From IMG/VR virus record IMGVR_UViG_3300033074_002003: a stretch of DNA of 64,000 nucleotides; one strand, given 5' to 3'. Of the stretch, positions 2,232-20,072 are shown in pieces (the stretch's first letter is position 1; each line of letters starts with the position of its first letter). Source of the stretch: a virus. The notes below the pieces were generated by a model. The model saw only the letters and a list, made by a program, of their open reading frames with translations. It was not told the DNA's origin and did no database searches. The position numbers were made by a program, and so were the translations under genes.

Positions 2232-2370
2232 TGCCTCGCGGGTGACCCGAGAGGGTCCCGGACATCGCGGGCAGGGTGTGACCCATTGGGTGAGGTGGGT
2301 CACACTCGGGTGGACGTCGGGGTCGAGTGCGTGAGTGTAGGTGAGTGAGAGGGATGGTATAGTCTTCATC

Positions 2371-2667: not shown

Positions 2668-2718
2668 CACGGGCGTGAGCGCGTGCTGGCCCGTGATCGA
2701 GATGTTATAGTCTCGATC

Positions 2719-2934: not shown

Positions 2935-2965
2935 TAGGATGCGGGTGATGTGGTAGAGTTCGATC

Positions 2966-3355: not shown

Positions 3356-3396
3356 TTCCCGTGTAACGATGTGTGGGTGATGATATAGTCTCGATC

Positions 3397-3696
3397 ATGG
3401 ACAACAACCCCAAGTTCAAGTTCACCAGCAACCCCCACGCTTCGCTCAATGGCACGTCGTTCCACAACATCGAGCTACGTGCACCCATCGAGCGCCTCGT
3501 CGAGCTCTTCGGGGAACCCATCACGGGCTGCGACTCGAAGACCAAACACGAGTGGATCCTCGAGGGGTCCGACGGGTCAGTCGTCTCGCTCTACGACTAC
3601 AAATACGACGGCGCCCGTGAGGGGTACTGGCACGTGGGTGGGCGCACCGTTGGCGCGTGCAGGACCTTCGTTCTCTGGTTCTGCGACCAGGGATGA
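3397..3696 (+). CDS. Small early protein (99 aa)
   Basis: Cassette gatgatatagtctcgatcATGgacaacaac. Trimmed from ORF 3373..3696. Confidence 0.55.
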   Translation: MDNNPKFKFTSNPHASLNGTSFHNIELRAPIERLVELFGEPITGCDSKTKHEWILEGSDGSVVSLYDYKYDGAREGYWHVGGRTVGACRTFVLWFCDQG

Positions 3697-3738
3697 GAAT
3701 CTCGTGTTGATCCATGGGTAGGGTGTTATACTCTACCC

Positions 3739-4215
3739 ATGGACCCCACATACATCGACCGAGCGTACGTGTACGCACTGGACACGTGCTCGCAGGCGCT
3801 CGACCTCCTCACGGCGCACTGCTGGCACAGCATCGAACCCGACCAGCGGTGGTGGCTCGATGTGAAAGCGGGTGCTCTTCCCCCGTGGGCCAACGAAGAA
3901 GACGCCCGCTTCCGCGAGCGGTTGGAGATGTGGACGTGCGGCTTCTGTGAAGAGCTCGAGCACGGTACGTGCTTCTCGCTCGAGAGACAGTTCGCGAGCA
4001 TCGTTCGGTGTGCTGCCAGCATGGCAGACGAGAACAGGCACCTGATGCACAAGATGGCGAACGAGCTGATCGCCAGGTGCCACGCTCGGTTCGCCTGGGT
4101 GAAGAACGTGCTCGTCCCACGCGACAGGTTCGCCGGGACAGGACTCACCGAGGTGGCACAGATGAAGTCGCTGCGCCTCCAACTCGAGGGACCCGTGTCT
4201 CCCGAGAGAGAGTGA
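3739..4215 (+). CDS. Early protein (158 aa)
   Basis: Cassette gtgttatactctacccATGgacccc. Confidence 0.55.
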   Translation: MDPTYIDRAYVYALDTCSQALDLLTAHCWHSIEPDQRWWLDVKAGALPPWANEEDARFRERLEMWTCGFCEELEHGTCFSLERQFASIVRCAASMADENRHLMHKMANELIARCHARFAWVKNVLVPRDRFAGTGLTEVAQMKSLRLQLEGPVSPERE

Positions 4216-4239
4216 GATATAGTCTCGATCATGGACAAC
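4210..4239 (+). promoter_or_regulatory. Extended -10 leaderless promoter (gagtgagatatagtctcgatcATGgacaac)
   Basis: TGaGATATAGT then 7 nt then ATGGACAAC. Near-consensus copy. Confidence 0.6.
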
Positions 4240-4506
4240 ATTCCTGCCTCAGCCCGTCGCCCCATCGTCCGCATCATCGACGCGCTGACGAACGCAGAGT
4301 GCAAAATCACGTGCACGAGCGCGGAAGAGCTCGAGCTCGCCGCGAAGCTTCTAACGTCTGCTGGATGTATCCAGCACGAGCGCCGACTCCTGAACATCAT
4401 GCAGATGCTCAACATCGTGTCTGCCGAGATGAACGACATCCGTGAACAGCTCGTCGGCATCGCCCGTGCGGAGGCGAAGATGAAGGCCCGTCCCGAGGGC
4501 GCGTGA
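4231..4506 (+). CDS. Small early protein (91 aa)
   Basis: Consensus cassette; starts MDNI. Confidence 0.6.
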   Translation: MDNIPASARRPIVRIIDALTNAECKITCTSAEELELAAKLLTSAGCIQHERRLLNIMQMLNIVSAEMNDIREQLVGIARAEAKMKARPEGA

Positions 4507-4538
4507 CCCCGACTCGCGGGTGAGATAGAGTCTACTTC

Positions 4539-4904
4539 ATGGACAACATCATCGCCCTCGCGGAAAAGATCGTCAAGGCCATCCCGGGACTCCGGGACGA
4601 GACACAGGAGTTCTCGTGTGAGGACAACATTTCGTCGTTCGACGGGTTCTCTGTTTCGGAGAATCGGGACGACGAGTGGGACGTGTACCTCACTTACACT
4701 TCACCGTACGCGAAGGTCGAAGGGGCCCTCGAGGTGACCCTCGGCGAACCACACGAGTCGCACTGTCGTGGTGGGGACGACGCCTCTGACGTCTGGAAGA
4801 TCGACGGTGTCACGATCGTCCACTGTCGCGGGCGAATCGAACTCCACGGTGAGTTCGTGAAGGTCCCGAAGAGGGCCAAGAAGAAGTCCATGAAGAAGAA
4901 GTGA
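4539..4904 (+). CDS. Small early protein (121 aa), Lys-rich C-terminus (KRAKKKSMKKK)
   Basis: Cassette gtgagatagagtctacttcATGgacaac. Confidence 0.6.
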   Translation: MDNIIALAEKIVKAIPGLRDETQEFSCEDNISSFDGFSVSENRDDEWDVYLTYTSPYAKVEGALEVTLGEPHESHCRGGDDASDVWKIDGVTIVHCRGRIELHGEFVKVPKRAKKKSMKKK

Positions 4905-4945
4905 ACCCGCGTGTCGGTCTGTGGGTAGGGTGATACATTCTACCC

Positions 4946-5194
4946 ATGGACAACACCAAGACCGCCAAGTCGATCGCCTCTGTTGACGCGCAGCTCTCGA
5001 TGGCCGCCGATGCACTCTGTGATGCCCTCGAGACCCAGAACGACTTCGCCGACAACATCGAGGCCCTTCAGGACGTTACACCGTCCCAGTGGGCTGGGCA
5101 GGTTGCACGTGCGCAGGCCGAGCTCCGCGAGCGTGTCACGAAGCTGTACGAGGAGATGAACGACAAGCTCCTCGGTGGCGAGTTCGCCCAGTAA
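4946..5194 (+). CDS. Small early protein (82 aa)
   Basis: Cassette ggtgatacattctacccATGgacaac. Followed by the 91-nt structured element. Confidence 0.6.
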   Translation: MDNTKTAKSIASVDAQLSMAADALCDALETQNDFADNIEALQDVTPSQWAGQVARAQAELRERVTKLYEEMNDKLLGGEFAQ

Positions 5195-5348
5195 CTGATT
5201 CAGGAGGCACCTCACCCGTGCCTCGCAGTGACCCACGGAACAACTCTGTCCAGGTCGACAGGTAATTCCACCTTCGGCGTTCCGTGGGTCACTGCGAGGC
5301 ACGGGGATCGCGAGTGCAATGGCGTGTGCGTGAGGGTATACTCTACCC

Positions 5349-5678
5349 ATGGCCACACACCACTACTCCCAACTTCGTCCCTCCTCTCGTAAGATGATCC
5401 AGACCACCCTCTCAGAGAAGGGTGTTCCAACCAACTCAGATGGTGCACTCGACCGGACGGACTCGGATGCGTACAGTCACGCATTCTACATCATGGAGAA
5501 GTGTCCGAAGGGTCACAAGATCCTCGAGATCCGAAACGGGTCAGATGACGTATCGTTCTGGTACTACAAGACCGAAAAGGAGCTCGTGCACAAGTTCACC
5601 AGTGCACAGCACCACAACCAGTACGAGGGTGATGACGAGGACGGGGATTTCGAGGAGGAAGAGGGTGACGAGGACTGA
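5349..5678 (+). CDS. Small early protein (109 aa), acidic tail (DDEDGDFEEEEGDED)
   Basis: Cassette gagggtatactctacccATGgcc. Confidence 0.6.
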   Translation: MATHHYSQLRPSSRKMIQTTLSEKGVPTNSDGALDRTDSDAYSHAFYIMEKCPKGHKILEIRNGSDDVSFWYYKTEKELVHKFTSAQHHNQYEGDDEDGDFEEEEGDED

Positions 5679-5721
5679 GAAGTCTGTGTAGGTGGTGGTG
5701 AGGGGTGATATAGTCTTGATC

Positions 5722-6009
5722 ATGGACACACCCCTCAACATCGCCATCGAGAAGCTCAAGGCCAAGGTCGCGACCCTCGAGTTGCTCAAACCCTTCCCGG
5801 GTGCATACGACGAACTCCTCGACCACATCGAGGTCACCTGGGGACCCATGTTGGAGGACGAGGGTGACATGGCGGAGGACTTCGTCTTCGAGCTGGGTCT
5901 CGACGTGACGGACGGCATCCTACAGTTCGAGATCGAGATGGACCACTCGTGGTGGTGTTGGGACCCTATCACGAAGACTTGGTTCAATCCCGAAGATGCG
6001 AGGGTCTGA
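5722..6009 (+). CDS. Small early protein (95 aa)
   Basis: Cassette ggtgatatagtcttgatcATGgacaca. Trimmed from ORF 5692..6009. Confidence 0.55.
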   Translation: MDTPLNIAIEKLKAKVATLELLKPFPGAYDELLDHIEVTWGPMLEDEGDMAEDFVFELGLDVTDGILQFEIEMDHSWWCWDPITKTWFNPEDARV

Positions 6010-6225
6010 GAGGTACGCGTGACACGCACCGGACAGGATGGTAATGTTCTGTCCGGTGCACGACACCGAAGATTCGGGGACAGCACTCGGCGTGCAGAGA
6101 CCCGCTGGCGCCTGCGTAAGTCAACCGCGATTTTGGATTCAGCTCCATCATTCAAGGCACTCGCAGGATGGGGTCTCCCGGGAGGTTCGAATCCTCCTGT
6201 CTCCACCCGTGTATGACTGCTGACT
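6010..6225 (+). ncRNA. Promoter-less structured non-coding gap: 10-bp hairpin (6027-6058) plus tRNA-like 3' module (T-arm GGAGG-TTCGAAT-CCTCC, acceptor TGTCTCC, ACC at 6181-6207)
   Basis: This is the only >200 bp interval in the early array without a promoter cassette. It carries a canonical T-loop TTCGAAT and an ACC end. GGGGACA at 6076 is a possible 5' acceptor partner (7 bp with one G.U), which would give a 132-nt element. Confidence 0.35.
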
Positions 6226-6243
6226 GTGAGGTATACTCTACCC

Positions 6244-6480
6244 ATGGACAACAACATCTCTAAGTGGAAGATCCCTTCGTGGATGATCGCTGGCGTGCGG
6301 TGTAAGGTCGTCCGTGGGCGAAAGGTGAAGATTGGTGAAGTTGGAACTATCATCGACACCTTCACCACGGGGAACGGACACAAAGCGCGTGTCCATTTGG
6401 ATTCGACGGGTCCCATCCAGCGCGTGAACCCGCAGCTGTCCTACACGCGTATCGCAGTCCAGAACCTAGAACCTATCTAA
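6244..6480 (+). CDS. Small early protein (78 aa), KOW-like
   Basis: Cassette gaggtatactctacccATGgacaacaac. Confidence 0.6.
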   Translation: MDNNISKWKIPSWMIAGVRCKVVRGRKVKIGEVGTIIDTFTTGNGHKARVHLDSTGPIQRVNPQLSYTRIAVQNLEPI

Positions 6481-6513
6481 CACTTCACTGAACGCGTGAA
6501 TGGCCGTGGGTGG

Positions 6514-6539
6514 GGTGATATACTCTATCCATGGACAAC
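6514..6539 (+). promoter_or_regulatory. Extended -10 leaderless promoter (ggtgatatactctatccATGgacaacacc)
   Basis: TGaTATACT then 8 nt then ATGGACAAC. Confidence 0.6.
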
Positions 6540-6770
6540 ACCTGCCCCGAACTTCCGCGAAGTCCCGCTATGCCCCCATGGCTCGACGGCCTCTGTGCCA
6601 TCTGGCTCGAGTGGGATGAGGGCGTCGGACACTGCCGGGACCTCGAGCTCGAGGAGCTCTGTGCGTGCCTCGACGCCGACTGGTCGATCGACTGTGGTGA
6701 GTTCTCGGGCCACCGGCAGTGGGACGACGTGATGTCACGGTGCTCGGATCGGATCGCCTACACGAGCTGA
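6531..6770 (+). CDS. Small early protein (79 aa), Cys-rich
   Basis: Cassette promoter; starts MDNT. Confidence 0.55.
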   Translation: MDNTCPELPRSPAMPPWLDGLCAIWLEWDEGVGHCRDLELEELCACLDADWSIDCGEFSGHRQWDDVMSRCSDRIAYTS

Positions 6771-6811
6771 GGGCACGTGATGGTCTGTGGCCAGTGAGGT
6801 ATCATCTATCC

Positions 6812-7135
6812 ATGGACCAAATCGCCATCGACTCAAACTACGCCATCCTCGCGAAGGAAGTGGTCGCCAAGGAGTTTCCCGCGGCAGTCACCGCCATCGC
6901 CAACCACGGCAACTGCGAGGGATGCAACCTCTTTGACGCGGGTGAGGTCTTCTACCTCTTCACCAACCCGGGAGGCGGCAAGGACCTTCACGTCGTCGTC
7001 GACCAGGACGCCGAGGTCTACAGCTGGGACGGTGACAGCTGGAATGAGTTGGAAAACTGGATGGCTGATGGCGAGACACGGTCGTGGCTTCGCCGCCACG
7101 CCAAGAAGCACGGGTTGGTCTACACCCAAGAGTAG
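6812..7135 (+). CDS. Small early protein (107 aa)
   Basis: Cassette gaggtatcatctatccATGgaccaaatc. Trimmed from ORF 6719..7135. Confidence 0.55.
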   Translation: MDQIAIDSNYAILAKEVVAKEFPAAVTAIANHGNCEGCNLFDAGEVFYLFTNPGGGKDLHVVVDQDAEVYSWDGDSWNELENWMADGETRSWLRRHAKKHGLVYTQE

Positions 7136-7193
7136 GTCTGGGTCGCGGGTCCCATCTCGTGTATGGATGGGACCCGCGTGGTAGAGTTTACCC

Positions 7194-7442
7194 ATGGACC
7201 AAATCTACAAGCTCGCACGCAAGATCGCCCGTTGCCTCTACAGCGACTCGCACGTGCCCGTTGCGGAGTCGCTCCCCAAGATCTCCGCTGGACTCGAGAG
7301 CGACATGTCGGTGCCAGGCTCGCGCCTCCCTGACGACGGTGAGGTCGAGTTCCTCGTGTACGGGGGCGATGAGGGTTCGACCCCCGAGGAGGTGATGGCA
7401 AAGTGGCCGAAGACCTACGAAGCCATCGGGTCGTTCTTCTGA
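7194..7442 (+). CDS. Small early protein (82 aa)
   Basis: Cassette ggtagagtttacccATGgaccaaatc. Confidence 0.55.
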   Translation: MDQIYKLARKIARCLYSDSHVPVAESLPKISAGLESDMSVPGSRLPDDGEVEFLVYGGDEGSTPEEVMAKWPKTYEAIGSFF

Positions 7443-7481
7443 GCGCGTGAATGCAGGTGGGCTTCGTGGTAGAGTCTTCTC

Positions 7482-7967
7482 ATGGCAAAGAAGACCACGA
7501 AGCCCAAGGCTCCCAAGTTCCTAGCGGGCGACCGCGTGAAACTCCTCCCGTTCGAGGGCCAACCCGAGGAGTTGGGTGTCGTCATCGAGTACGAGGGAAA
7601 CAACTTGTACTGTGTTAGCGTCGACCGTCGCTTCCGCACGAAGGAAGACGATGGCCTCAGAGAGGTCGACGGTGACCAGCTCGAGGCTTCTTCCGAGCCG
7701 CTCGAGCCCGTCAAAACCAAGATCACGACCCTCTTCCGCATCTCTGCGCGGGCCGCACAGAAGCTCTTCAAGAAGGAATTCAAAGAAGCGATGGTCGATC
7801 TCGACGACGTCGATCCGCGTGACATCGACTGGTTCATCGACTCGAAGGGAAACCTCTGGACGAACGACGCCCTCGACGACCACGGGTACACGTTCTTCAA
7901 CCTCGCGACGCCGACTTTGTCGTTCGACCGTTCGGAGGTCAAGGTCCTCGACGACCTCAACGACTAA
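7482..7967 (+). CDS. Early protein (161 aa), Lys-rich N-terminus, KOW-like AGDRVKLL
   Basis: Cassette ggtagagtcttctcATG. Confidence 0.6.
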   Translation: MAKKTTKPKAPKFLAGDRVKLLPFEGQPEELGVVIEYEGNNLYCVSVDRRFRTKEDDGLREVDGDQLEASSEPLEPVKTKITTLFRISARAAQKLFKKEFKEAMVDLDDVDPRDIDWFIDSKGNLWTNDALDDHGYTFFNLATPTLSFDRSEVKVLDDLND

Positions 7968-8007
7968 GCGCGTGAACCCGAGCGGGTGAGGGTGTAGAGT
8001 CTACTTC

Positions 8008-8268
8008 ATGGACACCACACTCACCGTTGCCATCGCCAAGTTCCCCTCGACCTTCGGCCTGCGCGCCTTCCCGGGCGACACGTTCCGCGTGAGCCCCTCG
8101 GCCTCGTACATGACCGACGCGTACCGCTGGGACCGTGAGACGAACACGACAGTGCGGGTCACCCCCGTCCCGATGCTCTACACCGAGCGCCTCTGCGAGG
8201 ACGGTGTGTGGCGCGACTTCGCGAAGGGGACCACCGAGGAGCTCCTCCAGAACGTCGTGAAGCTCTGA
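8008..8268 (+). CDS. Small early protein (86 aa)
   Basis: Cassette gtgtagagtctacttcATGgacacc. Confidence 0.55.
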   Translation: MDTTLTVAIAKFPSTFGLRAFPGDTFRVSPSASYMTDAYRWDRETNTTVRVTPVPMLYTERLCEDGVWRDFAKGTTEELLQNVVKL

Positions 8269-8291
8269 TCTCAGGGAGGTAGAGTCTCACT

Positions 8292-8579
8292 ATGGTCCAC
8301 ATCTTCTACCGTACCCTCGACGCCATCTCAGAGGCCCCTGTCGCCCTCACGGTGCCGACTGACGGGCTTCGAAAAGAAGACTACGAGCTTGTTCACGTGC
8401 TCGATAACTCGGCTCCGCACCTCGAGGCGATCTACCGGATGATGAACGTCATCTCGGGGAACGAGCTCCCTGTGCGGCTCGGCATCCGAACTATGACCGT
8501 GGGTGACGTCATTGTCGACGAGGACGGGACCGTGTGGTTTGCGGGCGCGTCTGACTGGGAAGAGACGAGCTGGTTCTGA
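8292..8579 (+). CDS. Small early protein (95 aa)
   Basis: Cassette gaggtagagtctcactATG. Followed by conserved terminator hairpin 8587-8625. Confidence 0.5.
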   Translation: MVHIFYRTLDAISEAPVALTVPTDGLRKEDYELVHVLDNSAPHLEAIYRMMNVISGNELPVRLGIRTMTVGDVIVDEDGTVWFAGASDWEETSWF

Positions 8580-8586
8580 CCTCGCC

Positions 8587-8625
8587 GTGACCCGCTCGGG
8601 CCCCCACGGGCCCGAGATGGGTTCC
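8587..8625 (+). terminator. Conserved GC hairpin gtgacccgCTCGGGCCCccacGGGCCCGAGatgggttcc (copy 1)
   Basis: 9-bp stem with 4-nt loop, 8 nt after the stop at 8579. 36/39 nt identical to the copy at 9588-9626. Confidence 0.55.
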
Positions 8626-8801
8626 CATACCACCCACACGTCCCGAGTGACCCCAGCCTCCCAGAAGGGATACAACTCACCTCATGGAACTCATCTACCT
8701 CGCGGTCGGTCTCGTCGTGGTCGCCCTCCCGGGCGCGGTCATCTCCCTCGCCGCCTTCGGCCTCGAGTGACAGTGTGGGCGGGAGAGGATAGGATCTGAA
8801 C

Positions 8802-8999
8802 ATGGTCAAGAGCAACGTCTCACGCCCCGTGAAGCGCTACATCGTGCGGTTCTTTCACCAGGACATGGGCGGGTGCGAGTGCCCGTTCGAGGCCGATGAA
8901 CATGACGATGCCCGCGAGCGCAGGGACGAGATCAACGCGGGACAGTACTCTCGCATGAGCGACGCTAGCATCGTGCGTGTCTACGCGAAGGGGAAGTGA
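8802..8999 (+). CDS. Small early protein (65 aa)
   Basis: Cassette ggataggatctgaacATG. Confidence 0.5.
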   Translation: MVKSNVSRPVKRYIVRFFHQDMGGCECPFEADEHDDARERRDEINAGQYSRMSDASIVRVYAKGK

Positions 9000-9011
9000 T
9001 AGAGTCTACCC

Positions 9012-9197
9012 ATGGAAGAAATCGCTAGCAAGCCGCACGAGCACGCCTGGGGTTACGACAAGTGGGAGACCCTCTGCCACAACGGCCGTCGCATCGTGCA
9101 CCAGTGTAACGACTGCCTCGCCGTACGGGTCACCTTTCGCACCCACAACGCGGGCGACAAGGTGGTCGTCATCGACCCGCCCTACGTGAAGGACTGA
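9012..9197 (+). CDS. Small early protein (61 aa), His/Cys-rich (possible Zn binding)
   Basis: Cassette gtgatagagtctacccATGgaagaa. Confidence 0.5.
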   Translation: MEEIASKPHEHAWGYDKWETLCHNGRRIVHQCNDCLAVRVTFRTHNAGDKVVVIDPPYVKD

Positions 9198-9220
9198 ACG
9201 CGAGGGTGTAGAGTCTGGTT

Positions 9221-9574
9221 ATGGACAACAACATCGCCATCGACTTCGCGCGCCTCACCCCCGCCCAGTCCGCGCTGCTCGCCCGCATCCGCGTGTCCCT
9301 CGCCACGAACTCCCTCGCGGTGGAGCGGGCCATCACGGTCCTCTACGCGAACCAGACCACCGACGAGCGGGCGGTCTCCGCGACCAAGCACCAGAACGCC
9401 AAGGGGTTCAACTCCGCCGACGCGAGTCGGCTCTCGTACTACGCCCGCTGGGTCGGGTCGGGTCGCCACCTCACGGGTCACCACCTCGACCGTGCGCGTG
9501 CCACGGTCGGCAAGTACTGGCGCCAGCTCCTGCGCGCGGCGGTTGCGAAGGCGCAGGTGGCACAGGGCGCCTGA
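9221..9574 (+). CDS. Small early protein (117 aa)
   Basis: Cassette ggtgtagagtctggttATGgacaacaac. Followed by hairpin copy 2. Confidence 0.55.
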   Translation: MDNNIAIDFARLTPAQSALLARIRVSLATNSLAVERAITVLYANQTTDERAVSATKHQNAKGFNSADASRLSYYARWVGSGRHLTGHHLDRARATVGKYWRQLLRAAVAKAQVAQGA

Positions 9575-9587
9575 CCCGGGCCTCGCG

Positions 9588-9626
9588 GTGACCCGCTCGG
9601 GCCCTCACGGGCCCGGGATGGGTTCC
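9588..9626 (+). terminator. Conserved GC hairpin gtgacccgCTCGGGCCCtcacGGGCCCGGGatgggttcc (copy 2)
   Basis: Same element as 8587-8625, 14 nt after the stop at 9574. Confidence 0.55.
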
Positions 9627-9707
9627 ACCACCTCGGCGGGCTCGACCTCTCTGCGAGGCACGAGCCGAGAACGTGAATCCCCGTGCGCGGGAGGATAGAG
9701 TACTCTC

Positions 9708-10439
9708 ATGCCGCTCATCACCCAGAAGCATGGTTTCGATGTCGCGACCCAGCGCTACACCCGGAAGGGTGACCCCATCACGGAGCACGAGGGCCGGGTG
9801 GTCGCCCGGTACGACCTGCACCTCACCCGCAACCACTCCGACACGCTGGACTACACCGACTTCCAGACCGCCCAGGTCGTGAAGATCGTCGTGAAGCTCG
9901 ACGCTCCCCTCGCGGATCCCTACCACTACTACTCCAACCCGCTCTACCGGAAGGGCGACCCCTTCGTGGAGATCGAGGTGTTCTCCTCCCAGTACACGTG
10001 GCGATGCCCGAGCGACTTCGTGAGTGCCACGGTGGACGCCTCCCCCGAGCTCATCGCGGAGCACGAGGCCTTCCTCGCCGGTCGGCGAGCGGAGATGGCC
10101 GCTGAGGCCGCTCGGGTGGCCCAGGAGAAGCTCGAGGCCGAGAAGAAGGAGGCTGCCAAGCGAGCGGTCGCGGAGGCCCGAGAGGCCGCTCGGAAGGCTC
10201 AGGCGGAGGCCGTCCTCGCTGGGATGCCCGAGAAGGGAACCCGCGTCACGGTGTGCGGGATGAAGTATCCCGAGCCTGTGGTCGGCACGGTGTTCTGGAA
10301 GGGAGTCACGAAGTACCGCGGGAAGTGGGCCGCGAAGATCGGCGTGAAGCGCAACCCGAAGGACCGGGACGAGGACCCGATGTGGGTGGGGGACGGCGAG
10401 TACACCGTGGAGCGGGTCGTGAAGTTGGGCGCCGCGTGA
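9708..10439 (+). CDS. Early protein (243 aa) with Ala/Glu/Lys-rich coiled-coil segment
   Basis: Cassette ggaggatagagtactctcATG. Largest gene of the array. Confidence 0.6.
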   Translation: MPLITQKHGFDVATQRYTRKGDPITEHEGRVVARYDLHLTRNHSDTLDYTDFQTAQVVKIVVKLDAPLADPYHYYSNPLYRKGDPFVEIEVFSSQYTWRCPSDFVSATVDASPELIAEHEAFLAGRRAEMAAEAARVAQEKLEAEKKEAAKRAVAEAREAARKAQAEAVLAGMPEKGTRVTVCGMKYPEPVVGTVFWKGVTKYRGKWAAKIGVKRNPKDRDEDPMWVGDGEYTVERVVKLGAA

Positions 10440-10453
10440 AATCTGTGCGGGTG

Positions 10454-10479
10454 GGTGGTAGAGTCTACCCATGGACAAC
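10454..10479 (+). promoter_or_regulatory. Extended -10 leaderless promoter (ggtggtagagtctacccATGgacaacaac)
   Basis: Same cassette; last copy of the early array. Confidence 0.6.
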
Positions 10480-10686
10480 AACGTACCGAAGTACGAACTC
10501 GCCGTGGGCGCCCGTGTCGTCGTCTACAAGGGAACCGGACAGATTGTCCCGCGCGGGTCGACTGGCGTCATCCTTCGCTTCCGACCCACGGGCTCCGCGA
10601 TCGATGACCTCGTGTGTGTTGACTTCGACAACGATGGGTGCGGACACTGGGTCCACCGGTCCCACCTCGCGATCATCGCCGACTGA
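10471..10686 (+). CDS. Small early protein (71 aa), KOW/SH3-like (VGARVVVYKGTG)
   Basis: Consensus cassette; starts MDNN. Confidence 0.6.
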   Translation: MDNNVPKYELAVGARVVVYKGTGQIVPRGSTGVILRFRPTGSAIDDLVCVDFDNDGCGHWVHRSHLAIIAD

Positions 10687-12190: not shown

Positions 12191-12194
12191 TGTG

Positions 12195-14021
12195 ATGGGA
12201 ATCAAAACGAGGGTTACGAGCCGCGGGATCGTGTCGTCGCTCTCTCCGGGCGAGGGCGACTCCTTTGACTGCGATGTGTCGCTCGGTACGGGCGCGATCG
12301 GTGGCGTGATCGGGAACACCTGGGTCGTGACGCCCACATCGTCGTCCGCGGGCGACCTCGCGGCGTGGAGGGAGGCCGCGGGGGCCGCCGCGCTCGTGGG
12401 CGGTCGCGTCCTCGTGAGGTCTGGGACGCTCAGCATCGCGTCCGACGTGACGAGCTCGCTGGGCGTCACTGTCGAGTTCCAGAGGGGCGCGGTCCTCGAC
12501 GTCGCGACGGGCTCTGTGGCGCTCTTCTGCGGTCCAGTCGTCGGTGGAGACATCGTGAAGGTCACGGGCGCGGGCGTCGCTCGGTGGCGCGGGCGGTCGG
12601 TGCAGTCGCTCTGGCTCGTGGGGGATTCCCTCGGCGTGGGTTCTGGCGTCCCGTTTGTGGGCGGCTGGCGCACGGGCATCGAGGCGTCCCTGCGCCGCTT
12701 CAGGTCCGATTTCGATTTTGTGGGCGACAGGATGACGCTCGCCTCTTCCTCGGCGGGAACGGGCCTCGCGTGGCACTCCTGCGTCTCGGGCGAGACCATC
12801 GGGGGCGCGACGGCGCTCGTCACCCAGCAGCTCTCGGGCTGCCTCGTGACACCGGACGCCGTCGTGGCCGTCCTCGGGACGAACGATATCGTTGGCGGGC
12901 AGACGCTCGCGCAGATGAAAGCCTCGTGGGCGTCGTACGAGTCGGCGCTCTTCTCCGCCCTTCCGAACGCCCAGCTCTTCGCCGTCGCGCCGCCTGTCTT
13001 TGTCGCGGGTTCGTCGGTGGGCGCGAACCTCTCCGCCTGGAACTCGACGCGGTCGTCGTACGCCGCCTGGCTCTCCGCGAGGTCGCTCGCCGATACCCGC
13101 CTCGTTTTCGTCGACCCCTGCGCGTCTCCTGGGATGTCGGCCGCCGAATTCCAGAGCGACGGCGTGCACTTCAACAGGCTGGGCAACGCGTCGTTCGGCG
13201 GGGCGATCGCAGACGCGATCGACACGTGGCTGGGTCCTGTGAGGAAGGGCGCGCTGCCCGTCCCGCGGATGTTCAGGCAGCGCAACGTCGCGGGTTCCGT
13301 CCTCGTCGATGCCGCGGGCGACGTGCGCGTCGTCACGGGCGCCGGGTGTGACATTCCCGCCGTCGGCGGGTTCGCTGTCGCGATTGACGTCTACCCGACG
13401 GCTCTCGGCGCGGGCCCGCTTGCGGTGCTCGCGATCGGCCCGAGGAACGCGAACCCGGCGATGTGGCTCTGCATCAGGCAGCTCGGTGCCGCGCTCGACC
13501 TCGGGGGTTACAGCGGCGCGGGGACGTGGGTCACGTCGGCGTTCTCGTCTCCGGAGGATCGCTGCCTCGTCGTGAACAAGTGGCACAGGATCGTCGCGAT
13601 CATTCACAGGGGGACAGGGTCGCTGCAGGGGTCTGCGGGCCTCTACGTGAACGGTCGCCTCGTGGGCACGATCTACGGGCTCGCGAACACGTGGCCCGCG
13701 TCGGCGCAGACGCTCTACCTGGGAAACTCTCCCGATTACGTCTCGTGTCCCGGGTACTACTCCTCGCTCCGCGTCTGGTCCGGGCCGCTCGTCCCACGGC
13801 CGGGATCGATGGCCGCCCTTCGCGCTGTGGAGGCGAACTTCTTCAACGACGAGCCCGTCGTCCCGGGCGCAACGACGTCTGTCAGGGAGTTCGACGGCGA
13901 CCTCCTCGACGCTGTGAGCGGTTCGGTGGCTGCTGGGCTCTTCAACGGTTCGACGGCGCTCGCCTCCGCGTACCCGCAGGGAACACCCCTGCGCCCCTGG
14001 GAGATCGGCGCCGATTACTGA
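12195..14021 (+). CDS. SGNH/GDSL hydrolase fused to C-terminal LamG/ConA-like domain (putative virion-associated polysaccharide esterase/depolymerase)
   Basis: LWLVGDSLGVG (GDS block), GTNDI, DGVHFN (SGNH blocks III/V). C-terminal ~200 aa is Gly/Ser-rich beta-rich, LamG-like. Starts at the second copy of catacttagtgtgATGg. The 788-aa antisense ORF is a GC artefact. Confidence 0.6.
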   Translation: MGIKTRVTSRGIVSSLSPGEGDSFDCDVSLGTGAIGGVIGNTWVVTPTSSSAGDLAAWREAAGAAALVGGRVLVRSGTLSIASDVTSSLGVTVEFQRGAVLDVATGSVALFCGPVVGGDIVKVTGAGVARWRGRSVQSLWLVGDSLGVGSGVPFVGGWRTGIEASLRRFRSDFDFVGDRMTLASSSAGTGLAWHSCVSGETIGGATALVTQQLSGCLVTPDAVVAVLGTNDIVGGQTLAQMKASWASYESALFSALPNAQLFAVAPPVFVAGSSVGANLSAWNSTRSSYAAWLSARSLADTRLVFVDPCASPGMSAAEFQSDGVHFNRLGNASFGGAIADAIDTWLGPVRKGALPVPRMFRQRNVAGSVLVDAAGDVRVVTGAGCDIPAVGGFAVAIDVYPTALGAGPLAVLAIGPRNANPAMWLCIRQLGAALDLGGYSGAGTWVTSAFSSPEDRCLVVNKWHRIVAIIHRGTGSLQGSAGLYVNGRLVGTIYGLANTWPASAQTLYLGNSPDYVSCPGYYSSLRVWSGPLVPRPGSMAALRAVEANFFNDEPVVPGATTSVREFDGDLLDAVSGSVAAGLFNGSTALASAYPQGTPLRPWEIGADY

Positions 14022-14056
14022 TCCCCTCTCTCCCTGTAAACTGCCCCCTGTGCGGA

Positions 14057-14075
14057 GTACAGTGGCTCCATGGGA
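14057..14075 (+). promoter_or_regulatory. Early-type leaderless promoter gtacagtggctccATGg for the 14.07-19.93 kb operon
   Basis: TACAGT -10-like then 6 nt then ATGG. Same geometry as the early cassettes (ggtagagtctacccATGg). Confidence 0.45.
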
Positions 14076-14480
14076 AATCGGACTGAGAAGAAGAGCGACG
14101 TCGAGCGCCCGCTCGACGAGCTGGAACGCGAGTACGACGAGATGTGCGATCGGTTCGAGGACTCTCTCGTAGACCTGCGCCTCGCGATCCGCGACCACGC
14201 GAAGAAAGAGAAGAAGGGCGGCGGGCCCCCGGGCGATCAGGTGATCCTCGGCTGGCTCGTGAAGCACCTGAACTCCCCCGACGACCAGGTGTGGTACACG
14301 AGTGGGGGATGGTGGCGATCTACCCTTCGCGAGTGTAACAAGTTCTCTATTCGCGAAGAGGCGATCGAGGCGCTCCGTTCACAGCGACGGTACTGGTCCG
14401 ATATACACCCAGAGTGGCGATTCGGTCTCGTGAGGATCGTCCCCCGCGGGACCCGTGGGAAGAAGAAGGGCGGGAAGTGA
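14070..14480 (+). CDS. GW-KKKGG family protein A (136 aa)
   Basis: C-terminus GWLVKHL...SGGWWRS...EAIEALRSQ...LVRIVPRGTRGKKKGGK shares ~70 aa with three other operon members. Stop overlaps the next start (TGATG). Confidence 0.55.
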   Translation: MGNRTEKKSDVERPLDELEREYDEMCDRFEDSLVDLRLAIRDHAKKEKKGGGPPGDQVILGWLVKHLNSPDDQVWYTSGGWWRSTLRECNKFSIREEAIEALRSQRRYWSDIHPEWRFGLVRIVPRGTRGKKKGGK

Positions 14481-15076
14481 TGGAGAACCACAGCGATGTT
14501 TGGCCCGTCCGCGTGGGGGTCATCTCGGAGCTCAACTCCCGTGAGCTGCCGTCACCCGAACGGGTCGCGAAGATCAGGAGCGGGTTGCAACGCTACATTA
14601 CCGCGAAGTTCGGCTGGCTCTCGGAGATCCGGCGCGAGACGTGCCACTACATCACCCTCCGCGGTCCCCTGCGCGGGTGTACGCAGTACGTTGACGCCTA
14701 CATCGAGGCGGACGACGAGAGCGTCACCCTTACCCTGAGGGTTAGCGAGGACGCGGTGCCTGATCCCAGGAACGTGGGAGAGTCGTGCGCTGTCGCGTGG
14801 CGGTGGCGAGAAGGTGCGGCCGTCGACCTTGATTGTCCGGAAGATTACTTCGAGTGGGTTGTCGCGCTTCCCTGGCTCGCAGAGCGGCTGCCGCTCGCGA
14901 TGTTCGAGAGGGTTGAGAACGAGCGCGAACAGCTGCGCGCACTCGCGGAGATCGAGGCGCTCGGAGATCCTGAGGACCTCGAGGAGGGTGTAGAAGACGA
15001 TCTCGAAGAAGAAGAGACTCTGTGCGAGACCTGTGAGTGCAATACCTGCGAGTGCTGGAAGGGCGGGCGGCTATGA
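14480..15076 (+). CDS. Acidic, Cys-rich protein (198 aa; C-terminus CETCECNTCECWKGG)
   Basis: Start ATG 14480 overlaps the upstream stop. The ORF-track N-terminal extension (14414) lies inside the previous gene and is spurious. Confidence 0.5.
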   Translation: MENHSDVWPVRVGVISELNSRELPSPERVAKIRSGLQRYITAKFGWLSEIRRETCHYITLRGPLRGCTQYVDAYIEADDESVTLTLRVSEDAVPDPRNVGESCAVAWRWREGAAVDLDCPEDYFEWVVALPWLAERLPLAMFERVENEREQLRALAEIEALGDPEDLEEGVEDDLEEEETLCETCECNTCECWKGGRL

Positions 15077-15447
15077 AGAAGAAGAGCGAAGCGAGCGAAT
15101 CTCTGTGTGACCGCGTTTCCGCGGGTGCTGCCGCAGAGCTCGTCGCGGCGAACGGGCGGCTGCGCGAGCGGGTCCTCTCGGCATTTGCCGTGTACGACGC
15201 GGAACTGTCTCGGCTGTTCAATTCCACGAGGGAGATCGTTGGGTGGGTGTTCAGAGACGACGAGAGCGAGGAATACTTCGGCGCGGGCGGGTGGGAGGAG
15301 ACGAGGTCACGGGCCGTTCCTTTCTCGTCTCCCGCGGCGGCTCGCGAGGCTCTCGCCGAGTTTTTCAGGAGTTGCGACGCGGATCCTACACCCACAACGC
15401 TCGTGCGGGTGTGGCGCAAGAAGAAGAAGGGCGGGGCCGCGAGATGA
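15073..15447 (+). CDS. GW-KKKGG family protein C (124 aa)
   Basis: VGWVFRDD...GAGGWEET...AAREALAEF...LVRVWRKKKKGGAAR. ATGA overlap with the upstream stop. Confidence 0.55.
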   Translation: MKKKSEASESLCDRVSAGAAAELVAANGRLRERVLSAFAVYDAELSRLFNSTREIVGWVFRDDESEEYFGAGGWEETRSRAVPFSSPAAAREALAEFFRSCDADPTPTTLVRVWRKKKKGGAAR

Positions 15448-15950
15448 GCTCCACGGGATATGCTGCACACCTGCGAACGATCACCCGGGCTGCGATCGAG
15501 AAGCGAGAGGCCGATGACGCCGCACGTGCGGATCGCGAGTTCATGGACCTCTGGAAATCGTTCACTGCTGTCGCGGCGAACAGGGCCGCTGACGGGAAGT
15601 TTGATGCTCCGTTCTCTTTCGTTGAGCGAGGGAGCAACGCGATCTTCCCCGGCGCCGTGGAGCGGTTCTACGCGAGGCTGTCGGCGGAGGGTTTCACGCG
15701 GGGCGAGCGTTGGATCGATTGCGAACTCACGACGGTAAAGATCGGGTGGGAGGAGTCTGCTGACCCTTCGGCGCCCGCCAAAGAAGTTGTAGAGCGTACC
15801 GTCGTAGAAGTGTGCTCGTGCTCGTGCGGCGGCGACCCGGACGCATGCCTTGCGTGCAACCCGGACGAGGATTCATGCTGGCGCGGGATGTCGGCAGAGC
15901 GCAGGGCGCGCTCGAGGAGGCTCGAGGAGGCTCGAGGCGACTCGCCCTGA
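15443..15950 (+). CDS. Cys-cluster protein (168 aa; CSCSCGGDPDACLACNPDEDSC)
   Basis: ATGA overlap with the upstream gene. The ORF-track frame 15243..15950 has a spurious Arg-rich N-terminus. Confidence 0.5.
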
Positions 15951-15972
15951 CTCGCAGCGGAAGGAGGAGTAG

Positions 15973-16333
15973 CGTGACGTTCTCAATCGCTGTTATCATC
16001 GCGCTCCTCATGGGCGAGGGCGTCGGGCGGGCCCTGCTCGTTGGGCTGCTCGCGGAGCTCGTGTGGAGCGGGATCGCCGAGGGGCTGGGTGCCGAGGGCG
16101 GCAATGTTTTCTTCTGGTTTCGCCGGTGGCACGCGAGGAGGAAGAGGGCGAAGCGTCGCGAGGAGCTCATGAAGATGCGCGTCGGCACGGCGATCCCACC
16201 CACGACCTACCGCGCCGTCCCAGCACCCGGGGGTCACACGGACGAGGAACTGCGTCGCATCGAGGAGGAGCTCGATGCAGAGCTCTCGGGCGAAACAGTG
16301 AACAAGAAGGGCGTGCTGAAGGGCCTGAGGTGA
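15973..16333 (+). CDS. Small membrane protein (120 aa, GTG start after GGAGG)
   Basis: Hydrophobic N-terminal half (FSIAVIIALLMGEGVGRALLVGLLAELVW). SD ggaaggagg 6 nt upstream of GTG. Confidence 0.4.
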
Positions 16334-16448
16334 GAGCAGAATATCGAGCTCGGGAGCGCGCAATCCTTGTCGTGATGTGCAGTGAGGAATTTGGCCCGGG
16401 TGATCGGGTGCAACCCGTCGTCCCGTGTGTTAGGATGGTGAGAAGAGC

Positions 16449-17534
16449 ATGAACAAAGAAGACGATAAGAAGGCGGCGACTTGGGGACCCGTGAGTCACG
16501 AGACTGTGGGTGGTTCGATGGTGCGGCTCACGGGTCTCATGCCCACGCGCGCAGTGCTGGAGATCGTCCGGCCTAGCAACGAGATCTACCGGGGTTCCCC
16601 TCCTTCGCTGTTCACGGGCATCGATCGCGGGGACGCAAGAGACATCATACTCACGCTCGAGGCGTGGCTGAAGAGCGATGCGCCTGACGACAGTGTGACT
16701 GCGGTCGACATCGCAGACGAGGTCTTTGCCCGCGAGCTCGTGCGGCGACTCAATCACGGGATCGAATCGTGCGAGTCGATGCGCACGATGTGTGACCGTG
16801 CCCTCAACCAGGAGGGCCGATGGGCGCCGTGGATGCTCGGGTTCGTCAGCGAGACGCTCGGTTCTGACTTTGTGGTTGGGCTCGTGAACGGGCCCGGCGG
16901 CGAGTTCTGCGGGTTCGAGCTCTTGCGAGGCGACGGTGCCGCGCGCGAGGCCGTTCCCGGGACATCGCCCGGGGAGAGACCCGCCGCGACCGATCACCTC
17001 GCTGTTCGTGTCGAGGCGCTCGAGCGCGCGCTCGAAGATCTCAGGCTGGCGAAGAACAGGGAGGTCGAGACGCTCGAGGGCCTGGTTCACGGGCTCGACG
17101 AGCGCCTCAGTGATGTCGAGGGCGAGACGTGCGACACACACCTCGTCTCGTGTGCCGCTGCGAGGCGCGCGACTAGCGATGGTCGTGACGACGAAGTGTT
17201 TCTCGGAACCGTCCTCGAGAACATCATCGCGCGCCTCGAGGACCTCGAGATTGCGGCGGATGACGCGAGTGCAGAGGTGAAGTATAAACCGGAGAAGAAA
17301 GAGAAGGAAGAGCGCGTCGTCACTGGATGGCTGTGGAAGCACGCGGCGCCCTGTACGAATCCCTACGGCGGCGAGAACGGCTGGAAGGGCTCTGTAAAGG
17401 CCGCCAGCCCGTTCAGGACGCGAGTGGCCGCTCGAGAGTTCGCGGATCGCCACGGCGACGTGCGCAACAACATCCTCGCGGGCTACACCAAGCTCGTGCC
17501 CGTGACGCGAAAGAAGAAGGGCGGTGGGAAGTGA
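16449..17534 (+). CDS. GW-KKKGG family protein G (361 aa), central coiled-coil
   Basis: C-terminus VVTGWLWKHAAPCTNPYGGENGWKGS...AAREFADR...LVPVTRKKKGGGK. Confidence 0.55.
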   Translation: MNKEDDKKAATWGPVSHETVGGSMVRLTGLMPTRAVLEIVRPSNEIYRGSPPSLFTGIDRGDARDIILTLEAWLKSDAPDDSVTAVDIADEVFARELVRRLNHGIESCESMRTMCDRALNQEGRWAPWMLGFVSETLGSDFVVGLVNGPGGEFCGFELLRGDGAAREAVPGTSPGERPAATDHLAVRVEALERALEDLRLAKNREVETLEGLVHGLDERLSDVEGETCDTHLVSCAAARRATSDGRDDEVFLGTVLENIIARLEDLEIAADDASAEVKYKPEKKEKEERVVTGWLWKHAAPCTNPYGGENGWKGSVKAASPFRTRVAAREFADRHGDVRNNILAGYTKLVPVTRKKKGGGK

Positions 17535-18535
17535 AAATCAACGGGCTCAAGAGTTCGGACGATGGAATTGGGACGCTTCACGTCAATGTCGATCAATCTG
17601 AGGGTGGTGGCAGAGCGAGTGTTGACATCGCAATCAACGTCTGGAACGATAAGAAGCAGTTCTTTAGCGCGTCACCGGCTATCGCGGTATCATTTTCTGA
17701 CATCGGCACGCTGATCGAAGAGCTGCAAGCGTGGCGATCCCGCGTCTGTGCGCACACGATCCAAGAGAAGTGTGGCTGTCTCATCGAGCCGCTTGACGCG
17801 GCAACGCCGCCCTGTGAGCTCGAGGTCGGACACGCGGGGCCGCACGAGTTCACTGACAGGACGGGAACCACGAAGTGGCCCCAGGGATCGGGCGTGGATA
17901 TCTGTCCCGCGAAGAGCCCAAAGACCGGGAAGAGGTGCACGTGGCACCGTGAGCACGTCGCGATCGATCACAAGGCAGATGAGCTCGGCGATAGCTGGTC
18001 ACTTGCGACGGGGCGGCGCGTCGCCACGATCACCGACCCGGGCGCTTACTATCCCGGTATCAGCTCCCAAGATCACGTATCTATGCCCTGGCCCAGCGAA
18101 CACGTGAGGAAGCTCGCGGGTGAAGACAGCTGGGGCGATTGGCGTCCGGTGATCGGCATGCGGGGGTTCATTGTCTCTGAGGAGATGAGGCACCCCACAT
18201 CACATGCGAAACTATACCTCATCGACTTCGGTGAGAACCACTATGCTGTGTTCGCCACGAGGGGCGTTGATGTCTCGGAAGGGGCGGGCGAGATCGCCAA
18301 AGAGCCCAAAGAGGCCAAGGAGATCGTCGGCTGGATCTGGCGGTCTGAAACGCTCAGCGCGGGCCTTTTCTTCTTCGGAACGAACGGTTGGAAGGGAACT
18401 CGGCGAGGTGCTGGGATTTTTCCGACAATCGATGCGGCAAGAGCTGCTCGAAAGTCTGATTGTCCTTCTGCTGTCCTGAAGAGGGTCGTGCGCAAGCGAA
18501 AACTGGCCGACAGCACGGGTGAGGGAGCGAAGTGA
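17530..18535 (+). CDS. GW-KKKGG family protein H (335 aa) with Cys clusters
   Basis: GTG start overlapping the upstream stop (GTGA). CGCLIEP...PPCELEV / CPAKSPKTGKRCTWHREH. C-terminus IVGWIWRSETLSAGLFFFGTNGWKGT...AARAARKS...LKRVVRKRK. Confidence 0.5.
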
Positions 18536-19005
18536 TGGCTGACGATCGAGATCCAGAGGGGAAGTTCAAGGCCTTTGAGGACGCCCTCACGGAAGCGCTG
18601 CACGCGGTGGGTAGCACCCTGAATCGTCCCAGAACGCGCGGCTACGCCAAAGACGTCACTTCGGCCCTTCGCGAGCTCCTGGTGCCACCCGAAGCTTCTG
18701 TTGCAGAACAACAGCAAGTGGAACCAGGTGACGAGTTCTTGAGAGCCCACTGCGAGTGTCCGTCACCGAAGATGAGCAGCGCTCCGGACGGTGCGTGGCA
18801 GTCCGGTGACGATTACTACTGCACAACCTGTAGCGGCGTCGTGAGAAGTGGCGCGCCAAATTACTGGTGTTGGCACACCAACAGAGAGATCTCGTCGGTG
18901 CTCAGAGATTGCTACACCGCAGCGTACGAACCCAAAAGAGCATCTGAGATGCAGACGGCTCTCAGTCGAGCTATCAACCTCTTGAAGAAGCTGGAGAAGC
19001 GATGA
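18535..19005 (+). CDS. Cys-rich protein (157 aa)
   Basis: TGATG overlap. CECPSPK...YYCTTCSG...YWCWH. Confidence 0.45.
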   Translation: MADDRDPEGKFKAFEDALTEALHAVGSTLNRPRTRGYAKDVTSALRELLVPPEASVAEQQQVEPGDEFLRAHCECPSPKMSSAPDGAWQSGDDYYCTTCSGVVRSGAPNYWCWHTNREISSVLRDCYTAAYEPKRASEMQTALSRAINLLKKLEKR

Positions 19006-19583
19006 TGAGCGAGAGAGACGCAGATTTTATCGCAGCATCGACAGAGAAGCGCCTCGTCGAGGCCGAAGCGCAGCTGAAGTTCTACCGGGACCGCGAGGAA
19101 CACTTCGCGCGTGTCCTGATGGTGAGCGACGGCGGGCAATACAGGGCGGACTGGGACTCGCGGATCAGGGCGATCATCGCGGAACGCGATCGGGCGATCG
19201 GAGATGCGAAGCGACTCGAGCACGAGCTTCACGAGGTCGTGAGAGCGTTCGAGAAATTCGGAGAGGCTGACGCGCTCGCAGACGCGAATGGGAACATCAC
19301 GCCGTACCTCGGCGTCCTACGCACGCTCGAGAGGCTTCACTCGGCCGAAGACAGCGCCGAGCTGCTTGGACTCGGCGTCGCAAAAATTAGCAGGCACATC
19401 ACAGAGAGGCTTCCCTACGTGCGCGCGACGCTCTCGCCGGGAAATCGCAGAGCACTCACGAACGGAATGTGCAGCATTGACGCCGGCAGAGCGGAACAAT
19501 CATATTTGTTCATCGAACACATTCTCGATATCGTAAAATCGGTTGTGTCTGAAGTGACGAAAGGTGACGGGAAAGAAAAATGA
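19002..19583 (+). CDS. Hypothetical protein (193 aa)
   Basis: ATGATGA overlap with the upstream gene. Helical. Confidence 0.5.
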   Translation: MMSERDADFIAASTEKRLVEAEAQLKFYRDREEHFARVLMVSDGGQYRADWDSRIRAIIAERDRAIGDAKRLEHELHEVVRAFEKFGEADALADANGNITPYLGVLRTLERLHSAEDSAELLGLGVAKISRHITERLPYVRATLSPGNRRALTNGMCSIDAGRAEQSYLFIEHILDIVKSVVSEVTKGDGKEK

Positions 19584-19933
19584 AACTAGAGATGACGCTC
19601 GTTGACCTGATGATTCGCGTCGCGATCGGCTGCGTGTTCCTCGCACTTGTCGTGGGCGGCGTGTTCAAGGTGAGCTCTGGGTGTTCTGGCATCGATCACC
19701 AGTACGCAGAGAGCGAGGCGAGGCGGTGGTCGCAGCAGATGGGCATCGAGCCCGTCGGTGTGTCCTGTGCGAACGTCGACTCTGACGGTGACGGGTACGT
19801 GTCGTGCACCGTCTCGAGCAGGGGACCCGACGGCAAGGTCGACCTTCATCCGATCGAGTGCGCTGTCAGGGTGTCGATCAACTCGGGATGCAGGTCGCAG
19901 CGCCCTGGTGTGTGGGGCGGTGTGAAGCAGTAA
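19580..19933 (+). CDS. Signal-anchored/secreted Cys-rich protein (117 aa)
   Basis: N-terminal hydrophobic segment IRVAIGCVFLALVVGGVF, then 8 Cys. ATGA overlap. Confidence 0.5.
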   Translation: MKLEMTLVDLMIRVAIGCVFLALVVGGVFKVSSGCSGIDHQYAESEARRWSQQMGIEPVGVSCANVDSDGDGYVSCTVSSRGPDGKVDLHPIECAVRVSINSGCRSQRPGVWGGVKQ

Positions 19934-19950
19934 TCACTCGCGCTGCTAAC

Positions 19951-19993
19951 ACAAAGGGTGGTGGAGCGACGCTCCACCACCCTTTGTTGTTTG
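19951..19993 (+). terminator. Rho-independent terminator of the 14.07-19.93 kb operon
   Basis: Perfect 18-bp stem ACAAAGGGTGGTGGAGCG / CGCTCCACCACCCTTTGT followed by TTGTTGTTTG. Confidence 0.75.
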
Positions 19994-20072
19994 CCCTCCG
20001 TGACACACGTGAAAATTGCCGGGTGATGTGTTATGTTTCCACCATGCCCATGGTCCTCATCTCTGGTGCCAA

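Follow-up and report, generated by a model that had tools for sequence, protein, structure and literature searches.

The question raised by the viral record IMGVR_UViG_3300033074_002003 (IMG/VR) is why four proteins encoded in one operon, with unrelated N-terminal regions, should all end in the same domain. The operon is located at positions 14070 to 19933 on the + strand of the 64-kb stretch of DNA that was analyzed (64,000 nucleotides; hereafter the window), and the window derives from an uncultured jumbo myovirus with a genome of ~306–329 kb. The genes of the operon are referred to as g1 to g11 in their order along the DNA, the variable N-terminal regions of the four proteins as heads, and their common C-terminal domain, which carries two Gly-Trp motifs, as the GW module.

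Four proteins share a C-terminal module

In order to compare g1, g3, g7, and g8, the proteins were aligned over their last 73–81 residues, and the alignment revealed a common C-terminal module of ~70–80 amino acids. Pairwise blastp comparisons gave E values of 8e-8 for g3/g8, 9e-7 for g7/g8, and 4e-6 for g3/g7. The pairs that include g1, the most divergent of the module paralogs (orthologs P0001, P0003, and P0004), gave 1e-5 (g1/g7), 4e-3 (g1/g3), and 0.6 (g1/g8). Hidden Markov models (HMMs) built from the orthologs of a single paralog ranked the other three paralogs at the top among 1,243 six-frame open reading frame (ORF) fragments of the window, with E values from 8e-9 to 0.016, the exception being the g8-family HMM, for which g1 came sixth with an E value of 0.85. 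A six-frame scan located exactly four copies of the module in the 64-kb window, and no significant similarity was found among the heads of g1, g3, g7, and g8. The residues invariant across paralogs and orthologs are G-W (strand 1), G-W (strand 3), F, A (helix), D, L, R, and K.

These results agree with an initial sequence-only reading of the DNA, in which the same four genes were described as unrelated heads on one C-terminal domain of unrecognized type: blastp, HMM cross-recovery, and the six-frame scan all support the common module, the similarity holds under alignment, and the profile libraries assign no known family and reveal no match to a known common domain. Judged by these comparisons, the module is a genuine homologous domain that was previously undescribed. 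The KKKGG ending given to it in the same reading proved to be variable. While g1, g3, and g7 have a GG one to three residues from their ends, g8 ends RKRKLADSTGEGAK (RKRK..., no GG), and the equivalent of g3 in the sister lineage L009 ends RKKKVSKS. Conservation at the C terminus is thus limited to the basic run that follows the last strand.

Distribution and selection

An exhaustive profile search of 1.84 billion representative proteins recovered the module in four clusters only, one ortholog group per paralog; the other hits proved to be motif-level matches or artefacts of repeats. When full-length g8 or the head of g7 alone served as the query, all proteins returned were full-length orthologs (64–100% identity). 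By the measure of these searches, the module is confined to this phage clade and is always found on the same four heads, which in turn never occurred without it. Since the module has no carriers other than the orthologs of these four genes, the heads are fixed partners and not a shuffled repertoire. The sequence-only reading had likened the locus to polymorphic effectors, and polymorphic toxin/effector loci do resemble it in having tandem genes and a constant domain joined to unrelated regions. Such systems, however, show many alternative heads across genomes, whereas the four heads observed here are the same everywhere, and the analogy is not supported, given this lack of head diversity in the 1.84 billion-protein search. 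No toxin, immunity, or secretion domains were identified in the operon. The finding is a well-delimited, lineage-restricted orphan paralog family in a jumbo-phage accessory operon.

Comparison of the window with L009 showed 51–87% amino acid identity and dN/dS ratios of 0.15–0.49 for every gene (g2, 0.43; g4, 0.36; g10, 0.15), the best-conserved member of the cluster being g11 (87% amino acid identity). Such ratios indicate purifying selection on every gene of the operon. Constraint is stronger on the module than on the head in g1 (dN/dS 0.37 vs 0.79), g3 (0.23 vs 0.49), and g7 (0.21 vs 0.33), whereas the opposite applies to g8, where the head is the more constrained part.

A check of synteny in related phages, which had been proposed along with the sequence-only reading, showed that the cluster is present and that its gene content is fluid. 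A single ORF of 327 amino acids (8128–9111) in L009 represents an in-frame fusion of g2 and g3. In L012 and L013, g3 is cleanly deleted so that three module proteins remain, and g2, lengthened at its N terminus by a CxxC...CxxC extension, reaches 261 amino acids (4257–5042 in L012). Furthermore, g5 appears to be frameshifted in L012, and g9 to g11 are lost in L003 and L014. These deletions, losses, and the fusion in sister lineages point to accessory genes and not to essential structural ones, and the cluster is, on this comparison, dispensable in part.

Predicted fold and relationship to known families

AlphaFold2 modelling of the g3 module with nine sequences gave one confident model (pLDDT 83.9, pTM 0.66), which begins with a long strand and a short hairpin, continues with a helix of 15 residues and a last strand, and closes with a basic, disordered tail. 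The predicted fold is accordingly one of three short strands, a helix, and a final strand, followed by the disordered basic run R-K-K/R-K. The AlphaFold model of full-length g8, which is unreliable at a pLDDT of 37, displays the same secondary-structure pattern as the g3 module.

None of the ten proteins of the operon had a significant match in Pfam, PHROGs, NCBIfam, or PADLOC, and the four module proteins had no match at all. Pfam hmmscan with the isolated modules returned nothing at E ≤ 10, and the sequence profile search of the PDB gave a single non-significant match (E = 1.7). The sole non-orthologous profile hits carrying the G-W...F-[ST]-x-x-E-A motif were two repeat proteins, P0012 and P0013. 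P0012 scores weakly on DUF2188, while P0013 is itself not recognized as AP2. The module resembles DUF2188 and the AP2/integrase-type DNA-binding domains in this local motif and in the order of secondary-structure elements. Significant profile or fold similarity was not found for either family, and membership was rejected on an hhalign probability of 24% and the lack of a Pfam match for the modules.

A further likeness is to the GW modules of Listeria (Pfam SH3_8/GW), which are also ~80 amino acids long, basic, and C-terminal, carry a Gly-Trp signature, and are joined to different heads. The Listeria modules are cell-surface anchors on lipoteichoic acid, whereas binding to a polyanion is only proposed for the phage module. 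The phage modules also differ from them in giving no Pfam match at E ≤ 10, the phage proteins lack signal peptides, and the predicted fold, with its 15-residue helix, is not the SH3-like all-beta fold of the Listeria family.

Organization of the operon

Realistically, the operon consists of ten credible + strand genes (Table 1). The run of + strand genes described in the sequence-only reading stands; the eleven genes coupled at every junction that it proposed are reduced to ten, with start/stop overlaps of 1 or 4 nt (TGATG, ATGA, GTGA) at seven of the nine junctions. Of the other two junctions, g4–g5 has a gap of 23 nt containing GGAGG and g5–g7 a gap of 115 nt. Overlaps of this kind are ordinary in phage genomes. 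The start of g8 was corrected from 17530 to a GTG at 17531. The Cys clusters noted in g2 (CETCECNTCEC) and g4 (CSCSCGG...CLAC) are present. In place of two membrane proteins and a secreted 8-Cys protein, transmembrane-like segments were identified in g5 and g11 only, and g11 has 6 Cys. The N-terminal hydrophobic stretch of g5, FSIA[VF]IIALL, is kept in L009.

Table 1. Positions of the operon genes and of other features in the 64-kb window
Feature	Position	Strand	Length (aa)	Description
GDSL lipase + Laminin_G_3 gene	12192-14021	+	609	69% GC, the maximum of the window
Promoter-like element before g1	14035-14069	+		TGTAAA-N17-TACAGT-GGCTCC-ATG
g1	14070-14480	+	136	Acidic helical head (aa 1-55) and GW module (aa 56-136; DNA 14235-14477)
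g2	14480-15076	+	198	Very acidic (net -23), C-terminal CETCECNTCEC, no GW module
g3	15073-15447	+	124	Helical head and GW module (DNA 15226-15444)
g4	15444-15950	+	168	Cys-cluster protein, CSCSCGG..CLAC..C
g5	15974-16333	+	119	GTG start; N-terminal transmembrane segment(s), basic juxtamembrane stretch
g5-g7 spacer ('g6')	16334-16448	+		Near-invariant DNA; L009 counterpart 9958-10070
g7	16449-17534	+	361	Acidic head (net -21) with coiled-coil-like stretches and GW module (DNA 17307-17531)
g8	17531-18535	+	334	GTG start; Cys/His-rich head and GW module (DNA 18311-18532)
g9	18532-19005	+	157	CxC...CxxC protein
g10	19002-19583	+	193	Helical protein
g11	19580-19933	+	117	N-terminal transmembrane or signal segment, then 6-Cys domain
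Intrinsic terminator	19948-19998	+		Stem of ~17-20 bp, 3-nt loop, then TTGTTTG
Late sigma factor gene, gp55-like	56123-57028	-

The gene that was removed is g6, read earlier as a 40-amino acid product of positions 16330–16452. No such gene was called by the gene callers on nine related metagenomic contigs, and in L009 two 1-nt insertions disrupt its frame from the GTG start; there, the spacer is read in frame with g7 (MCSEEFGPGDRV...). Approximately 100 nt of the spacer are about 98% identical between the window and L009, whereas the flanking coding DNA is only about 75–80% identical. This near-invariance beside diverged coding DNA points to an element acting at the nucleotide level. The spacer contains a promoter-like sequence, TGCAAC-N16-TAGGAT-GG, at 16409–16438. 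A structured RNA was considered and rejected (fold z = +1.1 vs shuffles, no Rfam match). The spacer is probably regulatory DNA and not a gene, and it may act as a promoter or operator or encode a conserved leader peptide.

Transcription signals

The intrinsic terminator that the sequence-only reading placed at the end of the operon was confirmed. The hairpin at ~19948–19991 has a folding z of −6.2, and in L009 the equivalent place is occupied by a hairpin whose stem differs in sequence (z = −5.2). Since the structure is kept despite the changed stem, this is a genuine terminator. The ten genes hence constitute a translationally coupled operon closed by an intrinsic terminator.

A 45-nt element upstream of g1 is conserved across four lineages, both with and without the GDSL gene that can precede it. 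Only 6 nt separate its −10-like box from the ATG of g1, and the mRNA would therefore be leaderless. The operon is probably driven by its own promoter, with a second internal promoter before g7, as suggested by these upstream sequences. The pattern TGYAA-N17-19-TANNRTGG, which is post hoc in that it was defined from two of its four sites, is found four times in the window versus 0.06 expected, namely upstream of g1 and g7 and at two independent sites. One of the latter, at 57189 (−), is positioned about 130 nt 5′ of the late sigma factor gene. That these sites mark a class of middle promoters is only a lead.

The early genes have a different and well-defined signal. Approximately 30 near-identical promoter-like sites were identified at 200–10500 (+), plus one at 20006 and one at 33693, with the consensus CGCGTGAa-N17-(G)TAGAGT/TATAGT/TATACT-CTaccC-ATGGACAAC and position weight matrix (PWM) scores of 20–31 vs a shuffle maximum of ~19. 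Each site of the array is located directly 5′ of a small ORF, and with only 6 nt from the −10 box to the ATG, leaderless mRNAs are predicted here as well. The conservation extends into the first codons (M-D-N...). The site at 20006 is located downstream of the operon terminator. The regions upstream of g1 and g7 were also tried as members of this early class and rejected, as they score 1.5 and 3.4 against the same shuffle maximum.

A third motif, CTATTTAR, occurs at five sites versus 0.39 expected, at 33331 and 36806 (+) and at 41902, 49581, and 53473 (−). At the four sites checked, it precedes gene starts of the structural region by 5–12 nt. CTATTTAR is thus a candidate late promoter motif for the gp55-like sigma factor, and it is absent from the window between 10 and 33 kb, including the operon.

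Possible functions of the module

The modules of g1, g7, and g8 have net charges of +7 to +9 (pI above 10), while their heads have net charges of −3, −21, and −9, respectively, and g2, the fusion partner of g3 in L009, has −23. Each GW motif, like the last strand, is followed by conserved K/R residues. A possible reading of these sequence properties, which we propose tentatively, is that the module anchors acidic heads to a polyanion or nucleic acid. The family of four paralogs would have arisen via tandem duplication inside the operon. On the most economical reading, the module would give them all the same electrostatic anchor, which most likely binds nucleic acid or some other polyanion. Heads that are acidic, Cys-rich, or coiled-coil would be tethered in this way to a single cellular target ahead of the expression of late genes. 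We infer such pre-late expression of the operon from the lack of the candidate late motif at 10–33 kb and from the promoter-like class common to g1, g7, and the site upstream of the sigma factor gene.

For the C-terminal tail, the anchor reading separates two components. The basic run itself would be selected at the protein level, while the terminal GG of KKKGG would be shaped by the purine-rich ribosome-binding sequence of the next gene (GAAGGGCGGG) and not by protein function. This sequence is found 5–20 nt upstream of the starts of g2, g3, g4, and g8, and it also ends g2, which has no module. Because it recurs before starts and ends a protein lacking the module, the terminal GG is probably no protein feature. 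The basic run of g8, RKRK, is encoded by other codons and lies about 25–35 nt from the next start. This use of different codons away from the next start, together with the rarity of polybasic C-termini, suggests selection at the protein level. Elsewhere in the window, polybasic C-termini were found in two of 100 crude ORFs. One is an early protein encoded at 4539–4904 (+), which has no GW module and the tail PKRAKKKSMKKK, and the other, a weaker case, is the C terminus of the late sigma factor. A polybasic tail as a generic by-product of coupling was considered and is only partly tenable, given how rare such tails are elsewhere in the window.

Several observations weigh against an electrostatic anchor. 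The module of g3 has a net charge of only +1, no nucleic-acid-binding family was found by sequence or by fold, and the hhalign probability for the sole motif-level hit is only the 24% given above. The conserved W, F, A, and L may all belong to the core, with no surface demonstrably conserved, and the other four AlphaFold2 models of the g3 module score only 62–71. As for the time of expression, the promoter-class argument is post hoc, the pattern being derived from two of its four hits, and neither the g1 nor the g7 upstream site fits the well-defined early-promoter PWM of the phage.

The alternative that survives best is that the four proteins have no common address, the module being a stable fold or oligomerization unit spread by tandem duplication, with a K/G-rich end that mainly reflects overlapping ribosome-binding sequences. 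The four members stand in tandem in one clade with no shuffling to other heads, their conserved residues are mostly hydrophobic or aromatic plus Gly, as in a core, g3 is dispensable, and GAAGGGCGGG recurs at the junctions, including the end of the module-less g2. Against the overlap with ribosome-binding sequences, g8 and orthologs preserve the basic run using other codons at a distance from the following start, and the other coupled junctions in the window yield no polybasic tails. The greater constraint on the module than on the head in three of the four paralogs also argues against this reading, which we regard as somewhat unlikely.

Another explanation, which follows the targeting or packaging tag of the sequence-only reading, is that the module is a shared address tag that docks the four proteins on one phage partner, such as the scaffold, the portal, or the capsid interior, for packaging and ejection or for complex assembly. 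Differing heads on the same C-terminal domain are consistent with such a tag, and the g2–g3 fusion in L009 suggests that products of the cluster are physically associated. In phage T4, the internal proteins and Alt are likewise unrelated cargo with a common targeting element. The T4 capsid targeting sequence (CTS) is an N-terminal peptide of ~10 amino acids that is removed by gp21. It is therefore short, N-terminal, and cleaved, in contrast to the ~70-residue C-terminal domain described here, which is predicted to be folded and would be retained. Paralogous internal or ejection proteins exist in jumbo as well as in T4-like phages, and the internal head proteins of phiKZ and SPN3US are jumbo-myovirus paralogs with one common domain, a case of many proteins with one destination (PMC5694885). 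The phiKZ family PF12699 (gp93/94/95/162/163) thus resembles the present one in comprising several one-domain paralogs in a jumbo myovirus. However, no match to PF12699 was obtained for the ten proteins (Pfam hmmscan, E ≤ 0.1), for the isolated modules (E ≤ 10), or in PHROGs, and there were zero matches to any virion protein family. Internal and ejection proteins of the phiKZ type are cleaved near the N terminus, and the N-terminal fragment is cleared from the head (PMC5694885). They are late proteins found in the virion, and the prohead protease acts on many of them, whereas the present cluster is partly dispensable, with members lost or fused in sister lineages, and has no CTATTTAR, the candidate late motif that precedes structural genes. 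The position of the operon, adjoining the early-gene array and 20 kb from the structural genes, is a mild further objection. Taken together, an address tag of this kind is unlikely.

A broader version of the same idea is that the module represents a new kind of folded C-terminal localization domain, which sends unrelated effector heads to phage or host DNA or to the capsid interior for co-injection. We consider this distinctly unlikely; if true, the domain would be an "address label" without counterpart among known capsid- or nucleoid-targeting signals.

The module might also be a peripheral membrane anchor, with the Trp-rich sheet and polybasic tail bound to anionic phospholipids and the heads held at the inner membrane together with g5 and g11. 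The Trp residues and the Lys/Arg tail of the module fit this reading, as do the transmembrane-like segments in the co-transcribed g5 and g11. The tail is, however, predicted to be disordered, with no amphipathic helix in the model, and g9 to g11 are lost where g7 and g8 are kept, while g5 is disrupted in L012. This loss and disruption imply that the membrane partners are not obligatory, and a membrane anchor is accordingly highly improbable. Ubiquitin-like conjugation, in which the final strand, KKKGG, and the last 1–3 residues would mimic a precursor cleaved after GG and then conjugated, can be rejected with little hesitation even though g1, g3, and g7 end in GG plus 1–3 residues after a terminal beta strand, because neither g8 with its orthologs nor the L009 equivalent of g3 has the GG, the predicted order of three strands, a helix, and one strand is not a beta-grasp, and the cluster contains no E1, E2, or JAB genes.

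If the module were shown to direct its proteins to a common address, be it DNA, membrane, or capsid, this would provide a handle on the organization of accessory proteins in giant phages as well as a portable experimental tag. The main value of the family is as a clean test case, with four paralogs, a minimal version of 124–136 amino acids, and natural deletion and fusion variants. Phage biologists may prefer the by-products of the analysis over the domain itself, namely the ~30 leaderless early promoters, the candidate late motif, and a vault-like protein (see below).

Phage identity and genomic setting

The assignment to a jumbo myovirus is based on hallmark genes in the window and on contigs of genome size. 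The hallmark genes encode a baseplate wedge protein, the late sigma factor, an RnlA-like RNA ligase, and a tRNA nucleotidyltransferase (CCA-adding enzyme). The baseplate wedge protein matches PHROG 219 and shows 29% identity (tblastn) to the wedge of Flavobacterium phage immuto and to a 484-kb uncultured phage. The same genes are also located on metagenomic contigs of 305,889 and 329,329 bp, which are dense with small ORFs of unknown function. In INPHARED, megablast and tblastn returned zero matches for the gene cluster or for a 1157-amino acid protein, thus no close relative, and a scan of IMG/VR likewise revealed no close relative of this phage.

In addition, the window encodes large Laminin_G_3 proteins and two GT1 glycosyltransferases. 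The window, L001, L002, and L009 carry the 609-amino acid GDSL/LamG gene upstream of the operon, whereas L003–L008 and L012 lack it. Judged by this comparison, it is an insertion/deletion polymorphism whose 3′ limit is exactly at the conserved element before g1. The GC content of the window is heterogeneous, with 59–69% in the early and accessory region (1–20 kb) and 52–56% in the structural region (40–64 kb). ARAGORN called a tRNA-like gene at 62037–62110 (−), with an undetermined anticodon ('ta'). Finally, an 863-amino acid protein encoded at 30690–33281 (+) matches the Major Vault Protein shoulder domain (E = 3e-27), the vault repeat, and SPFH/Band 7, and a vault-like or SPFH protein is unusual for a jumbo phage.

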